Shown: positions 3-35,932 of the stretch, one piece after another
Numbering within the stretch: position 1 is the stretch's first letter
How the letters are laid out: each line of letters opens with the position of its first letter
Source: Armatimonadota bacterium
Lineage (GTDB): Bacteria; Armatimonadota; UBA10988
Reading direction: 5' to 3'
Assembly (NCBI GenBank): GCA_016235455.1
Contig: JACRKZ010000063.1
Span: 1 to 41,785, forward strand
DNA length: 41,785 nt
Program-made: the position numbers and the translations under genes
Notes under the pieces: model-generated
Database searches by the model: none
The model's input: only the letters and a program-made list of their open reading frames with translations
Told to the model about the DNA's origin: nothing

Positions 3-977
3 GACGCCCGCCTCGAGCGGCGTCGGTTCGTAGAGGACGTGCCGCCCATCGCCGGTGATCTTCGCCTCCATGTTGCGCGGTCCGGTGACCGGCACCTCGA
101 AGGCCCGGTCGTCGAGCCACAAGCGCGTGCGGCCGGCGTCGCTGGTCTGGTAGATGAGCTGCTCGCCGCTGGCCGAGTAGGCCGGTGTCCCCAGCCCGTC
201 GCAGCAGCACCCGCCGCAGGGCCCGCCGATCTTGTCGTGCCAGTCGCCCAGCCGGCCATCGCGCAGCAGCGCCCAGCGCTTGCCCTGCTGCACGAAGCAG
301 GCCCAATGGCGCTTGTCGGCCGTCATGGCCAGCGCGCCGATCTGGTCGAACGGGCCGAGCGTGCCCTCGTCACAGATGACGTGCCGCGGATGCTCCTTGC
401 CATCGAGCCACACCCCATTGGCCACGGGCGCCCCCCAGCCACGGTCGATGTCCGGCCAGTGCAGGCTCTGGATATCGCTTTCGGACCGCGATCCCAGCTC
501 GACGAAGGTCGGCCGCGCCTCGGCGAACAGGCCCAGACTGCGCTCGCCGTGCATCACGCGCACGCCCTTGGCCTCGGCCATGGCCCACGAGAACTGCCCA
601 TCGGCCAGCCGCACGGGCAGGTTGCGCGTAGCGCCCCACGGCGTGATCGCCTCGCCGTCGAGCGCCCATTGGCCCTGGCCGCGCCGGCTGACGTACCAGT
701 AGACCTGCTGCCCGTCGGGCGTGAAGACCAGCCGCTCGACCCGGCCCGCGGTCGGGTAGCGCCGGCCATCGACCACCACGGTATCATGCTCGGCGCCACG
801 CACGGTCACCGCCAGGCGGTTGCGTGCGCGGGCGACCAGGCTGTCGGGCGCGCGGCCCAGCGGCGTCTCGACGAACCTGGGCGCGGCGCCAGCAGTGGCT
901 GGCGCGGCGCCGGCGGTCGCGCTGAGCAGCGCCGTCAGCCCGAGCCAGAGCCACCACCCGCGTGTTGTCCTCCGCAT
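3..977 (-). CDS. Secreted WD40/TolB-like beta-propeller protein, paralog 1 of 3 (3' end runs off the window)
   Basis: Not in the ORF track because it has no stop in the window. Manual translation from ATG 977 (GGAG upstream) gives MRRTTRGWWLWLGLTALLSATAGA (signal-like), then VVVDGRRY...LVFTPDGQQVYW...GPFDQIGALAMTADKRHWACFVQQGKRWALLRDG, matching the two upstream paralogs. Confidence 0.8.
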   Translation of the reverse strand, partial: MRRTTRGWWLWLGLTALLSATAGAAPATAGAAPRFVETPLGRAPDSLVARARNRLAVTVRGAEHDTVVVDGRRYPTAGRVERLVFTPDGQQVYWYVSRRGQGQWALDGEAITPWGATRNLPVRLADGQFSWAMAEAKGVRVMHGERSLGLFAEARPTFVELGSRSESDIQSLHWPDIDRGWGAPVANGVWLDGKEHPRHVICDEGTLGPFDQIGALAMTADKRHWACFVQQGKRWALLRDGRLGDWHDKIGGPCGGCCCDGLGTPAYSASGEQLIYQTSDAGRTRLWLDDRAFEVPVTGPRNMEAKITGDGRHVLYEPTPLEAGV

Positions 978-32012: not shown

Positions 32013-33569
32013 TCACCGCATCGCCCGCCGCACCGCCAGCAGCTTCGGCGACTGCTCGGGCGGCTGGCTCAGGTACTCCAACATGCCAAACCGGCCGTAC
32101 TTGCTGTAGGCGTCGCAGTGGATGAAGTTGCAGAACAGCCCGGCGCCAGCCTCGCGCCAGCCCTGCAAGTAGCGGTCGTAGAGCCCGCCCATGCGCGGGT
32201 CGCGGTTGGCCTGGTCGAACAGGCGGTTGAGCGCCTCGTCGTTCTGCCAGGCACCTACGCCGACCAGATGCTGGCCGCCTTCGTAGGCGATCAGCGTCTT
32301 GCCCTTCGAGGCGGCATACCGGGCCATCTGCTGCACCACGTCCACGGCCTGGGGCACGGCGCGGCTGGACAGCTCGGCAAACAGCGCGTCGAGCGTCAGC
32401 CCCGGCGTCTGCACGGCGGCCTGGTTGCGCGCGTTGCCCAGGTAGCCGCCGAAGTACGGCGCGATGGCCAGCGCGTCGTGGTGCGCCGCGGCCTCGCCCG
32501 TCTTGAGCAGGATGTTCTCGAACCACCACGGCCCCGCCGCCTGCCAGGCCAGCACGCGCACCAGCCGCGGCGCGGGGATCTCCTGCTCGCAGAGGGTCAT
32601 GATCTCGGTGCTGCGGCGGGCGTGGTACATGCCGCCGCTTTCCCACGGTCGCGCCCGGTCGCCCAGGCCCAAGGCCGCGCCTTGCGTTTGCGCGTGGCGA
32701 GTCTGCGGGTACTCCGCGTTCCAGACCTCGTTCGAGTACTCCACATACGCCCGCAGCTTGGGGTCGAGCAGGCGGCCGACCGAGCGCGCGAACAGCCGCA
32801 CATACTCATCATCGACCGTCCACGGAATGGAGAACCAGGCGTCGACGCCCAGCCGGTTGGCCAGCGAACACATGACCTCAACCGGCACGCCGCGGATCGA
32901 CCAGCGCGCGTCTTCGACCGTCGGCCGGTCGGCCCACGTCTTGGGCTGGGCGGCCAGCCGTGCATCGCCCTGGGTCAGGTTCTGCTCGGCCCAGTTCATG
33001 AAGCGCAGGCAGCGGTAGCCACGCAGTGAGTCGAGGAACAGCGGATGGAACAGCGGCTCCGCGCCAGCGCCGGCCGTGGTGACGTGGATGTCGCGCAGGT
33101 AGTCGGTGGGGTCGGTGGCGGTGATGGACAACGCCAGTCCGCCGCGGCTGGGGTCGACCTCCAGCTCATCGCGCCCGGCCGCGCCGCCGGTCCGGCGCCA
33201 GGCGCCCTCATAGGCCAGCGTACCGCGTCCCTTGTAGTCGACCACATAGCGCCCGGCGGGATAGGTGTTGGGCCGGTCCCAGAACATGAGCGTCCGCGCG
33301 ATCTGACCCGGTTGGAGCGACCGCACCCAGCCGTGGGCGTCGAGGTCCAGCGGGCGTTGGTCCTGCCAGACGCCCGGCGCGCCGGACAGCCAGGGCCGCG
33401 AGGACTTCATGGCGTCGACGAACGGATTGGCGGTACTCCAGTCACGGATGCTGGCCAGGTTGGTGCCGATGGCCATGGCCGGCGGCGGCTGTGCGGCGGC
33501 GCAACTGCCCAGGAGGATGGCCGAGACGACTGCCAGCAGGCGATGCGGGTACGGCCGGGCGAGGGGCAT
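32013..33569 (-). CDS. Secreted or lipoprotein putative glycoside hydrolase ('cellulose-binding protein'-like family)
   Basis: LLGSC lipobox-like. IGTNL...DWS...FVDAMK, LRFMNW, YVEYSNEVWN, AIAPYFG, AYEGGQH suggest a TIM barrel with two Glu residues. Confidence 0.65.
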   Translation of the reverse strand: MPLARPYPHRLLAVVSAILLGSCAAAQPPPAMAIGTNLASIRDWSTANPFVDAMKSSRPWLSGAPGVWQDQRPLDLDAHGWVRSLQPGQIARTLMFWDRPNTYPAGRYVVDYKGRGTLAYEGAWRRTGGAAGRDELEVDPSRGGLALSITATDPTDYLRDIHVTTAGAGAEPLFHPLFLDSLRGYRCLRFMNWAEQNLTQGDARLAAQPKTWADRPTVEDARWSIRGVPVEVMCSLANRLGVDAWFSIPWTVDDEYVRLFARSVGRLLDPKLRAYVEYSNEVWNAEYPQTRHAQTQGAALGLGDRARPWESGGMYHARRSTEIMTLCEQEIPAPRLVRVLAWQAAGPWWFENILLKTGEAAAHHDALAIAPYFGGYLGNARNQAAVQTPGLTLDALFAELSSRAVPQAVDVVQQMARYAASKGKTLIAYEGGQHLVGVGAWQNDEALNRLFDQANRDPRMGGLYDRYLQGWREAGAGLFCNFIHCDAYSKYGRFGMLEYLSQPPEQSPKLLAVRRAMR

Positions 33570-33602
33570 GGGTGGTCTCCTTCGCGGTCATGCGGCGGCA
33601 GC

Positions 33603-33710
33603 CGGACAGCCCCACTGTAGTCCCCCCGCGGGCGAGGGGACGGCTTTGAAGCCGACCGCGCGAGCGCCTCAAGCTCCCTCCCCGCTCGCGGGGAGGGCTG
33701 GGGTGGGGGC
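33603..33710. repeat. Direct repeat copy A with REP palindrome CTCCCTCCCCGCTCGCGGGGAGGGCTGGGGTGGGGG (family C)
   Basis: 33611-33710 aligns without gaps to 34681-34780, and 33674-33710 is identical to 34744-34780. Confidence 0.85.
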
Positions 33711-33816
33711 TGCCCACAGACACCGTCGTGTTCACTGGATAAGGTGGACCATTTGGGATGAACGTAAACCGCTGGACCGGCGAGGAGCCGTTCGGGGACC
33801 GCGGAACCTGTTGGCC

Positions 33817-34656
33817 ATGGTTCGGGTAGGGACACTGGTCTGGGCTGTCGCGACTCCCTCCCCGCGCGCGGGGAGGGCTGTGGCGGGGGCCGCGTTGCGA
33901 CCCATCGAAGCACTCGCCCCGGCAGATCTCCTCTACGCACCCGACGGCCAGCCCTATCGCGCTGGGCGCATCATCACCCGTCGCTACCAGGGCGAGATGG
34001 TCGCCCTGACCACCGGCGGAGACGCCTTGTGGGTCACGCCAGCCACTCAGGTCCTGGTTCGCTGGCGCCCCCGCCACCCGCGCGCGGTCTGCGACTGGGG
34101 CGGCTCGCCACTCGCCTCGTTAACCCGTCGCCAGGAGCTGCGCCGCGACGCCAATCGCGCCGAACGCACCCTCTGGGGCCGCCTGCGTGGTACGCAGATG
34201 GGCACCAAGTTTCGCCGACAGCACCCCATCGGGCCGTTCATCGCCGACTTCTACAGCCGTGCGGCACACCTGGTCGTCGAACTCGACGGCGACACCCACA
34301 GCACCACCGAAGCCCAGGCGCACGATGCCGCCAGGACCCTCTACATGGAGAGCCAAGGTCTTCTGGTTCTGCGCTTTGCCAACCACCAGGTGCTCACCGA
34401 CCTCGACGCGGTGTCTGCAGGCATCTTCGACGCCTGCCGCGATCGCATTGCCGGCCAGGAGAGTGTGGAGTGGGTGGCAGCGCGCGACCTTGCCGCCGGC
34501 GATACCGTCCTTGCCGGCTGGCCGCTCGGAGCGGCTGAGCTGCGTGCCGTCGCGGTGGAGCGTGCCGACGGTCTGGTCTGCCGCAGCGCTGCCAGTGGCA
34601 TCTCCCTGGCCACCCAGCATGGCTGCCTGCGGGCACCACAGTCTGAGGCGCGCTGA
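33817..34656 (+). CDS. DUF559 (Vsr-like) endonuclease nested in a degenerate intein/Hint domain
   Basis: DUF559 motifs LRRDANRAERTLW, KFRRQHPIGPFIADFY, LVVELDGDTH, HDAART, VLRFAN. Hint-like GTLV...PIEALAPAD...DG...YQGEMVAL...LWVTP before them and EWVAARDLAAGDTV after. Start codon uncertain. Confidence 0.8.
   Translation: MVRVGTLVWAVATPSPRAGRAVAGAALRPIEALAPADLLYAPDGQPYRAGRIITRRYQGEMVALTTGGDALWVTPATQVLVRWRPRHPRAVCDWGGSPLASLTRRQELRRDANRAERTLWGRLRGTQMGTKFRRQHPIGPFIADFYSRAAHLVVELDGDTHSTTEAQAHDAARTLYMESQGLLVLRFANHQVLTDLDAVSAGIFDACRDRIAGQESVEWVAARDLAAGDTVLAGWPLGAAELRAVAVERADGLVCRSAASGISLATQHGCLRAPQSEAR
33851..33928. repeat. Repeat copy B, inside the DUF559/Hint coding sequence
   Basis: Aligns without gaps to 34741-34818 (REP palindrome plus TTGCGACCCATCGAA.CA.TCGCCCCGGC.GATC). 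Confidence 0.85.
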
Positions 34657-34671
34657 ACGCCCACTTGCCCT

Positions 34672-34818
34672 CGGCCAGCCCCCCCTGTGGTCCCCCCGCG
34701 AGCGGGGGGACGGCTTCGGCGCGGACCCCGCGGGCCTGGCCGACTCCCTCCCCGCTCGCGGGGAGGGCTGGGGTGGGGGCCGTCTTGCGACCCATCGAAA
34801 CATTCGCCCCGGCGGATC
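34672..34818. repeat. Repeat copy C (composite of copies A and B)
   Basis: First ~109 nt match copy A and last 78 nt match copy B. Confidence 0.85.
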
Positions 34819-34885
34819 ACCGCTGCGCGCCTGGCGCCCAGCCCTCGCCTCGGAGTATCATCCCCCAACCAAGGATCACCCGACC

Positions 34886-35932
34886 ATGCGCAGCCTGACC
34901 CTCGTCGCCCTGCTTGCTAGCCTCACCGCTGCCCAACCGCCGGCCACCATCCGCGCCGACCAGCCCGGCGACCGCGCCGTCTACCAACGTGATGCCAGGG
35001 GCCACGCCGCGTTGCCCGTGGTCTGCACGCTGCCCGGCGATCCGGTCGAGGTGGTCGAGGTGCAGGCACAGAACCGCGCTACCGGGCAGCCCGTGGGCGA
35101 GTGGTTGGCGCTCGCCCTGACCGACGGCTCGTGGCGGGGCAAGCTGGTGCTGCCCACGGGTTGGTACAAGCTCGTGCTGCGCGCCAGGCGCGGGCCGGCC
35201 GTGGTCTCCGTGGGCGGTGTGGAGCATGTGGGCGTGGGCGAGGTGCTGATCACCTGCGGCCAGTCCAACTCGGCCAACCACGGTCAGCCGCCGCAGAGGG
35301 CGAGCGACGACCGCGTGTCGAGCCGCGACTTTGGGTCTGGCCGCTGGGCCCATGGCGACGATCCGCAGCCGGGCGCCACCGGCACCGGCGGTTCGCCGTG
35401 GGCGCTGCTCGGCGACCTGTTGGCCGACCGGCTCGATGCGCCGGTCGGACTGGTCTGCGTGGGTGTCGGTGGCACACCGGTGTCGTACTGGCTGCCCGGC
35501 CAGGCCGGCTATGCCCGCCTGAGGAGGGCGCTCGAACTCGTTGGCCCCCAGGGCGCTCGCGCGGTGCTGTGGCATCAGGGCGAGTCGGATTCCATCGCCG
35601 GCACCAGCGCCGATGAGTACGGGGCGCGGCTGCGCGCGACCATCGAGCAGTCGCGCCGCGACGGCGGCTGGGCCGTGCCGTGGGGCGTTGCCCTGGCCGC
35701 GTTCCATCCCGCCGCCGAGGCCACCGCCGAGCGCCAGGCCGCGGTGATCGCCGGGCAGCGCCGCGTCATCGCCGAGGTGCCGGACGTCTTCCTGGGCGCC
35801 GAGACCGACAGCTTCCACGAGCGCGGCATGTTGACCGACACGGTCCACTTCAACGCCAAGGGCTTGGCCGCCCATGCGCAGGGCTGGTTTGAGGCGCTGC
35901 TGCCACGGCTGGCCAAGCAGGAACGCGGCTGA
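34886..35932 (+). CDS. Secreted SGNH carbohydrate esterase (sialate O-acetylesterase/SASA-like)
   Basis: Signal MRSLTLVALLASLTAA. VGVGEVLITCGQSNS, VGGT, VLWHQGESD, DTVHF. Confidence 0.85.
   Translation: MRSLTLVALLASLTAAQPPATIRADQPGDRAVYQRDARGHAALPVVCTLPGDPVEVVEVQAQNRATGQPVGEWLALALTDGSWRGKLVLPTGWYKLVLRARRGPAVVSVGGVEHVGVGEVLITCGQSNSANHGQPPQRASDDRVSSRDFGSGRWAHGDDPQPGATGTGGSPWALLGDLLADRLDAPVGLVCVGVGGTPVSYWLPGQAGYARLRRALELVGPQGARAVLWHQGESDSIAGTSADEYGARLRATIEQSRRDGGWAVPWGVALAAFHPAAEATAERQAAVIAGQRRVIAEVPDVFLGAETDSFHERGMLTDTVHFNAKGLAAHAQGWFEALLPRLAKQERG

Follow-up and report, generated by a model that had tools for sequence, protein, structure and literature searches.

A probable orphan intein with a DUF559 nuclease domain between BoxC-type palindromes in an Armatimonadota genome: a candidate selfish nuclease-and-palindrome element

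In the REP/REPIN-RAYT systems, a single-copy gene is reportedly flanked by palindromes that are also dispersed as gene-less inverted doublets. BoxC or intrastrand-triplex repeats were first described in the 1990s and are conserved across prokaryotes, and we know of neither a function nor a route of spread for them. DUF559 is, to our knowledge, a very large protein family without known function, while the gain, retention and loss of intein endonucleases are still debated. These subjects meet in the stretch of DNA analysed here (hereafter the window), which comprises positions 1 to 41,785 of contig JACRKZ010000063.1 (GenBank assembly GCA_016235455.1) from an Armatimonadota bacterium of lineage UBA10988. 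It harbors a gene, very probably derived from an intein, whose product combines a Hint-type scaffold with a DUF559 nuclease domain and which is bracketed by palindromes of the BoxC type.

Vsr-like endonucleases of the EDxHD type were described as free-standing genes situated between the halves of split inteins or in group I introns, mostly in phages (available parts of PMC2677866 and PMC3239194). According to the accessible text of a preprint (10.1101/2025.01.02.630785), earlier records of Vsr-like endonucleases concerned split inteins only, and the preprint itself adds antisense ones. For Thermosynechococcus, one paper mentions that a DUF559 gene of the EDxHD type lies next to inteins. A contiguous intein carrying DUF559 in frame, and the orphan forms of such an intein, are apparently undescribed in the papers searched. 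For the BoxC/PIT/TMECO repeats, the E. coli consensus has been published as CCCTCNCCC N3-6 GGGNGAGGG N3 GGGNGAGGG, and the E. coli K-12 genome contains 23 such motifs; the available part of that text has neither the word 'endonuclease' nor 'DUF559' and names no partner gene (Holder 2015, PMC4666352). The papers searched gave no description of a pairing of DUF559 with palindromes or BoxC. What this locus adds to such a pairing is its setting in an intein and its orphan state.

The gene (P0001; plus strand, 33817-34656) was delimited as an open reading frame (ORF) of 279 aa from the ATG at 33817. Its Vsr-like, EDxHD-type DUF559 domain (residues 104-207; 34126-34437) matched PF04480 with 104.2 bits (cut-off 20.6, E 4e-30 in Pfam), in agreement with the original prediction of a DUF559 nuclease, and was the single strong DUF559 match of the 6.5-Mb, 93%-complete assembly. 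All 25 columns that were invariant among 16 aligned sequences, including D144, E155, D157 and H161, were kept in the window protein. The Hint-type flanks, also predicted before, were recovered by profile and fold searches. Pfam returned nothing for the two flanks alone at E <=10, and the Hint assignment is therefore based on the family profile, which matched 3hrl (3.5e-30), the intein 2jmz (3.5e-6) and the RecA mini-intein 5i0a (2.3e-5) in PDB, and on the fold match. The AlphaFold2 model had a mean pLDDT (predicted local distance difference test) of 81.3; residues 1-10 reached 90 with a predicted strand at 7-11, and residues 18-22 remained below 50. In this model the nuclease part resembled 3hrl (TMt 0.88) and the catalytic domain of I-Bth0305I (3r3p, 0.79), while the predicted Hint part resembled the Mtu RecA intein (TMt 0.62), the BIL domains 2lwy (0.73) and 6y75, and a hedgehog Hint domain (range 0.60-0.73). 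The Hint N-half (LRPIE…LWVTPATQVLV; 33892-34062) was placed by alignment, model strands and intein/Hint fold matches. The C-half (VEWVAARDLAAGDTV…LATQHG/C, the slash marking the junction; 34459-34632) aligned to …VCAVHN/CGSGTT of hosted inteins and gave profile matches to the RecA and KlbA inteins. All these parts lie on the plus strand.

Residues expected for protein splicing were altered. The splicing nucleophile Cys1 of hosted inteins was replaced by Met1, the start of a block A strand (MVRVGTLVWAV; 33817-33849, plus strand) that aligned to C[VL]R.GT.[VI] of these inteins. Block B departed from the TxxH motif, with Thr74 kept and His changed to Gln (LWVTPATQ versus LWLTxDH), and the C-terminal junction read TQHG/C versus AVHN/C, with Asn changed to Gly and with His and the +1 Cys retained. 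A stop codon followed ten codons past this Cys. Methylase exteins were absent from the contig, which gave no match to two methylase N-exteins used as tblastn queries, and no orthologous methylase was found in the assembly. Because exteins are lacking and splicing residues are changed, the gene is, with high confidence, regarded as an extein-less, splicing-dead (orphan) intein derivative whose host methyltransferase gene is gone. The nuclease domain is apparently intact within this dead Hint scaffold.

Relatives retrieved by a protein database search aligned over 73-97% of the length with 34-47% identity, the closest ones over the full length with 40-47%. Alignment and the DNA loci of the relatives identified the family as an intein in motif I (DPT/CGSGTT) of a large DNA methyltransferase. 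The hosted layout runs from …TDPGDLVFDPT/C-VRKGT… through the Hint N-half, DUF559 and the Hint C-half to …VHN/CGSGTTAYCAEKWGRRW…, and methyltransferase exteins flanked the intein in three loci (L013, L015 and L100). L100, from contig C1 of a complete genome of the same phylum (G027), was hosted and displayed a frameshift in the hairpin region that separated block A from the remainder of the intein. The N-extein and block A occupied one frame, the rest of the intein and the C-extein (an 836-aa ORF) another, and the shift region contained a run of eight G. The methylase may be phase-variable or broken, or the shift may stem from a sequencing error.

The relatives carried in-frame hairpins at the same loop after block A, with one to ~12 units per locus (~12 in Armatimonadota, four in Nitrospira, three in Chloroflexi, two in Leptospiraceae and three in a genome from the window's family). 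Stems were near-identical and loops variable, and conservation at the DNA level was seen in Armatimonadota, Nitrospira, Chloroflexi and the window's family. In L013 (523-1035), from an Armatimonadota metagenome-assembled genome, ~12 tandem units (…LPASGEGMGGAE…) were translated within a methyltransferase intein that is hosted and apparently intact. A 575-aa ORF from a genome in the window's own family (L095; contig C15 of G002) displayed DUF559 followed by two hairpin-coded peptides, in frame in a larger protein without a Hint domain. The Nitrospira locus harbored a second copy, which followed 1479 nt downstream with 87% identity across 143 nt, the internal and the downstream copy being the only two of that genome, and the Chloroflexi orphan was flanked by copies on both sides, with ~50 more genome-wide.

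The maximum-likelihood tree placed extein-less copies at several positions, many forks being weak. The window protein paired with another orphan (support 95/94) on a branch of 1.36, the second-longest of the tree. Hosted inteins labelled Armatimonadota and Nitrospira were close sisters, which suggests that the intein was transferred between phyla.

The association between hairpins and DUF559 genes was assessed on the 80 top-ranking DUF559 loci of species genomes, which represent many phyla, were chosen by protein similarity alone and were extended by at most 3 kb per side (451 kb). Hairpins were counted when perfect and with a stem of at least 8 bp, and their positions were measured from where the protein match begins. 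Among the 257 hairpins so found, 48 fell at -200..0 and 34 at +200..400, the other 200-nt bins containing one to 13 each. A hairpin was present upstream in 45 of the 80 loci, downstream in 39 and on both sides in 29, with a stem type shared by the two ends. When the triplex was defined strictly, 109 motifs were found, and 86 of them were situated within -400..+600 of DUF559. No comparable pile-up was found at the remaining genes of these 3-kb flanks. Many other DUF559 loci fitted the arrangement CCCTCTCCC…GGGAGAGGG…GGGGTGAGGG.

The DUF559 gene of E. coli K-12, ycjD, is followed 168 nt downstream by a BoxC motif, the sole match in 30 kb, which no shuffle matched; by our own estimate from 23 motifs per genome, such proximity would occur by chance in ~0.6% of cases. 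We consider, with high confidence, that hairpins of this type are paired with DUF559 genes in a real and non-random way. The ycjD gene (L094; NC_000913, 16200-16470) ends in an imperfect CCCTCTCCC hairpin and, as observed by eye, its final ~40 coding bases are present a second time ahead of BoxC. With fabI and sapF as neighbours, the gene occupies the very site at which the eefRABCD operon is absent, an operon lost at least two times (available part of PMC12817139).

At the window locus, the 27-nt palindrome CTCCCTCCCCGCKCGCGGGGAGGGCTG occurred exactly at 33674, 33854 and 34744 (copies A, B and C). No further site was found in the window at up to two mismatches, and none of 100 dinucleotide-preserving shuffles contained a match. 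Copies A and C matched without gaps (33610-33710 and 34680-34780, 83% in a repeat search) and copies B and C were 86% identical over 33851-33955 and 34741-34845, their similarity extending with gaps to 33851-33979 and 34741-34866 in BLAST. Copy B was translated in frame within the nuclease ORF (peptide …ATPSPRAGRAVAGAALRPIE…). So far the original prediction, which had listed the three copies, the gapless match, the reading frame of copy B and the absence of the family from the rest of the window, was borne out. Genome-wide, the repeat is not confined to the locus, 29 of the 32 family loci of the assembly lying elsewhere. The prediction had also assigned ~35 nt of Hint-coding sequence to copy C; such sequence is present there and amounts to ~90-100 nt, i.e. 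~30 decayed codons of the 5' part of the gene, copy C being its sole bearer among the repeat copies. Read in the register of copy B, copy C gave the peptide …TPSPLAGRAGVGAVLRPIETFAPADH…, which matched residues 13-46 of the nuclease protein (68% over 34 aa, tblastn E 3e-6).

Copies A and C were both doublets, in which an inverted C6/G6 hairpin 1 precedes a CCCTCCCC hairpin 2 with a G-run tail. Hairpin 1 has the form GTCCCCCC-loop-GGGGGGAC and was located at 33620-33641 in copy A and at 34690-34711 in copy C. The doublet of copy A (33611-33710, plus strand; its 36-mer without mismatch to the family core) comprised this hairpin, which is imperfect, has its C-run on the 5' side and forms a triplex-type motif on the minus strand, followed by hairpin 2 and its tail (33674-33709, plus strand). 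A spacer with a GC content of 0.63, lower than that of its surroundings, separated copy A from the gene start (33711-33816), and no remnant of an N-extein was detected in it. The core of copy B, consisting of hairpin 2 and its tail (33854-33889, plus strand), displayed three mismatches and was translated as SPSPRAGRAVAG. The doublet of copy C (34680-34779, plus strand) combined a minus-strand motif of hairpin 1 (34680-34710) with hairpin 2 and its tail (34744-34779), again without mismatch. It was followed by the tail of decayed Hint N-half codons (VLRPIETFAPADH…; 34780-34866, plus strand), which was recognized by BLAST to copy B and by the above tblastn match and stopped ~20 nt short of the next gene start (34886). 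A strict scan for triplex motifs retrieved only four in the window, one of them on the minus strand (34680-34710) and three on the plus strand (33676-33708, 33857-33888 and 34746-34778).

The arrangement was supported by Logan contigs. An independent contig of run X2 covered 33686-34770 with zero differences and ran from the hairpin of copy A through copy B and the gene into copy C. Other contigs linked the left gene to copy A and copy C to the right gene, all contigs breaking inside the common hairpin, and no single Logan contig crossed the entire locus. In a run from another study (X5), a contig was 98.7% identical over 318 nt (four differences) from 34847 rightward and continued leftward with 289 unlike bases. 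The breakpoint falls inside the Hint-like tail of copy C, 2 nt beyond the end of the ungapped B/C match at 34845. Coverage by X5 reached only to 33558 in the left gene and left the nuclease gene, including 33719-34719, uncovered. This contig may represent an alternative allele without the cassette and is treated as a hint only.

The palindromes are of the BoxC/PIT/TMECO intrastrand-triplex type by architecture: a loop separates the pyrimidine stem from the purine stem, and a second, short loop leads to a G-run in which the purine arm is mirrored, T facing A. The unit of the window reads CCCTCCCC-GCTCGC-GGGGAGGG-CT-GGGGTGGGG. In the assembly, 32 loci matched its 36-nt core with up to seven mismatches, 29 of them outside the window locus. 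Dispersed copies were mostly doublets of an inverted hairpin 1 and a hairpin 2, ~10-35 nt apart. Seven doublets (contigs C35, C40, C56, C88, C151, C173 and C177; e.g. C173 near ~8180) were nested centrally in a unit of ~230 nt whose outer ~25 nt are mutually inverted (…GGCGAATGGCG.TTCC … GGAATCGCCATTCGCC…), a composite resembling a miniature inverted-repeat transposable element (MITE). In the phylum, matches of 35-40 nt with 83-97% identity were detected in ten of 40 other genomes searched, representing nine families. A loose hairpin pattern was found 361 times in G008 (2.1 Mb), a very high load for this size, and 292 times in G003 (6.9 Mb), compared to eight and zero times in the reversed control. 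Three features remained outside the original prediction: the doublet structure, the origin from an extein-less intein and the BoxC/intrastrand-triplex type of the palindrome.

The cassette is situated between a gene for a secreted protein without known family on the left and a gene for an SASA-type esterase on the right. The left gene (32013-33569, minus strand) is divergent from the nuclease gene and encodes a lipoprotein-like product of 518 aa without Pfam family; the label of carbohydrate gene that it had received before has no family match behind it. A paralogue region on contig C43 was 66% identical to it, and G002 contained an orthologue with 77% identity. No Rfam family was found in 33000-35500 at E <=1, and neither a sigma-70-like promoter nor an intrinsic terminator was found in 33400-35000. 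The composition of the window revealed no clear foreign island.

Taken together, the orphan Hint-nuclease gene and its flanking palindromes probably constitute a selfish nuclease-and-palindrome element. In such an element, the Hint scaffold and the intact nuclease would form a homing-type endonuclease free of protein splicing, and the palindromes would act in cis as ends, targets or recombination handles. The nuclease would nick or break DNA at or near a palindrome, and repair from the palindrome-flanked donor would copy 'palindrome-gene-palindrome' into palindrome-bearing sites. Unequal or template-switching repair would leave partial duplicates such as copy C, and gene-less doublets would be miniature derivatives or landing sites. 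That the nuclease itself acts on the palindromes is put at slightly below an even chance. More tentatively, DUF559 and BoxC/triplex palindromes might represent a widespread, undescribed selfish class whose nuclease recognises a structured palindrome, and whose way of life the intein of the window, having left its host gene, would have adopted, moving between palindrome sites rather than between methyltransferase alleles.

Several observations weigh against the selfish element. The start codon is uncertain: the gene-caller version (P0002, 219 aa) starts at Met61 (33997), which would truncate the Hint fold. In the inteins, hairpins are situated ~250 nt upstream of the nuclease domain, whereas stand-alone genes have them adjoining. 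Co-occurrence at the genome level was weak. Among 41 genomes, strong DUF559 was present in 11 of 17 with at least ten hairpin matches versus ten of 24 with fewer, a threshold picked after the data had been seen and applied to related, hence not independent, genomes; the remaining six hairpin-rich relatives displayed weak or no DUF559 at a completeness of 88-99%. The original prediction of a REP-DUF559 unit akin to RAYT/REPIN was sustained by the hairpin pile-up at the 80 loci and by the single gene facing 32 repeat loci, and was weakened by the poor co-occurrence. Two genomes with the intein were nearly devoid of dispersed copies (two in G041, both local; five pattern matches in G027 versus two in the control). 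When the 3' tails of the remaining 29 copies were locally aligned to the gene sequence and compared to 5000 random genome segments, they reached a best score of 20 with an empirical p of ~0.05, most being above 0.2. Because these tails bear no significant gene trace, the descent of dispersed copies from the gene is unproven, and the earlier proposal that repeats were copied from the gene found no support in them. By eye, the tails of a seven-copy subfamily resembled the LRPIE codons; the idea that dispersed copies carry gene sequence was dropped when the local-alignment test gave no support. Excision or amplification of the unit between copies B and C, also proposed before, found no confirmation: no A-C or B-C joint (deletion or circle) was detected in the Logan contigs of four runs, from which rare variants drop out. 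Neither was a clean empty site found between the flanking genes. The same-genus genome G001 (80% complete) gave no real match to the 3.9-kb region, and in G002, the nearest genome holding the left gene (77%), synteny is lost, the neighbour being another gene with neither hairpin nor DUF559 at that site.

Some of these points would suit independent repeats of unknown spread (by replication slippage or another enzyme) that gather at DUF559 genes, within or close by, as they do in further dispensable or horizontally acquired DNA, with the orphan intein as a decaying bystander. The six of 17 hairpin-rich relatives without strong DUF559, the ten of 24 hairpin-poor ones with it, the 29 tails without significant gene sequence and the second-longest branch (1.36) of the window protein all agree with this, as do the E. 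coli BoxC motifs, whose flanking genes share no function in the available part of Holder 2015 (PMC4666352). We nevertheless hold it to be fairly improbable: 86 of the 109 strict motifs lie at -400..+600 of 80 phylogenetically scattered DUF559 loci, with no pile-up at other genes; the upstream and downstream hairpins of one locus share their stem type; the window protein retained all 25 invariant nuclease residues; and stems are conserved across phyla in which the intein proteins drifted to ~40% identity. Hairpins on both sides of the gene could also serve regulation or insulation, curbing a potentially toxic nuclease by transcription block, translational control or polymerase pausing, the dispersed copies serving otherwise. 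A precedent exists in a set of 16 free-standing homing-endonuclease ORFs, 15 of which have RNA hairpins upstream and for which translational control was suggested (Dassa 2009, available part of PMC2677866). The stems of the window are, however, not followed by a T-run, the locus matched no Rfam family, and 33400-35000 contained no promoter- or terminator-like site. Earlier work cited by Holder 2015 (PMC4666352, as far as available) attributed no promoter or terminator activity to the motifs, and hosted inteins translate arrays of two to ~12 units, which is awkward for a simple 5' control. A regulatory role is therefore rated as unlikely.

A purely local history, in which a single degenerating intein locus went through tandem duplication or unequal crossover once or twice, without ongoing mobility, and the bracketing is incidental, would account for copy C as a partial second intein 5' region (doublet and ~30 Hint codons) right after the first, and the tandem arrays of hosted relatives imply that slippage is common. 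Such a history appears very unlikely, given that bracketing recurs independently at the Nitrospira and Chloroflexi loci and at stand-alone DUF559 genes, that orphan copies occupy several positions of the tree, and that the near-identical X5 strain diverges leftward from the right end of copy C. Finally, the unit resembles a REPIN in being an inverted doublet of related hairpins, and the genome contains three Y1_Tnp matches above the Pfam cut-off and one below, so that a conventional REPIN family, dependent on a RAYT (Y1 transposase) at another place in the genome and with DUF559 irrelevant, was considered as well. It is disfavoured to the point of being hardly credible, because none of the four Y1-transposase genes shares a contig with the hairpin pattern (42 matches on 25 contigs genome-wide), and the gene that is bracketed by hairpins is the DUF559 gene.

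The existence of an extein-less descendant with an intact nuclease in a dead Hint scaffold suggests that inteins can turn into free-standing selfish genes, and the selfish element, if real, would demonstrate a route from an intein to a free-standing mobile nuclease. Should DUF559 recognise palindromes, the BoxC/PIT repeats, including those of E. coli, would gain a partner enzyme and a spreading mechanism. A nuclease acting on palindromes could also become a structure- or sequence-specific tool enzyme.

Compared to known systems, the window gene shares with the Vsr-like/EDxHD homing endonucleases (I-Bth0305I) the predicted nuclease fold (3r3p, TMt 0.79), an association with inteins and nearby hairpins (Dassa 2009, in its available part). 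It differs from them in that DUF559 is in frame in a contiguous Hint fold, that exteins are lacking and that dispersed palindromes flank the gene. Degenerate inteins and BIL domains likewise possess a Hint fold without canonical splicing residues (2lwy, TMt 0.73, and 6y75, in comparison with the model); BIL domains are devoid of an endonuclease and reside inside larger proteins, in contrast to the stand-alone Hint-nuclease of the window.

The palindromes share with BoxC/PIT/TMECO their architecture, conserved stems and variable loops, dispersed intergenic copies and a wide prokaryotic distribution (available part of Holder 2015, PMC4666352). They depart from the E. coli consensus in their 8-bp CCCTCCCC stem, 2-nt second loop and inverted C6/G6 doublet partner. 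A precedent for a small non-transposase nuclease that recognises a dispersed repeat is provided by the Ssn GIY-YIG single-strand nucleases and their NTS/SRM repeats (Chenal 2025, PMC11893778, as far as available), which involve another nuclease superfamily and another repeat; the corresponding recognition by DUF559 is putative. The closest analogy is offered by REPIN-RAYT, with a single-copy gene in the window and the same palindromes in tens of gene-less inverted doublets. The present system differs from it in a weak dependence at the genome level, in stems that are conserved across phyla, and in relying on a PD-(D/E)xK-type nuclease set in a Hint scaffold instead of a Y1 (IS200/IS605-type) transposase.

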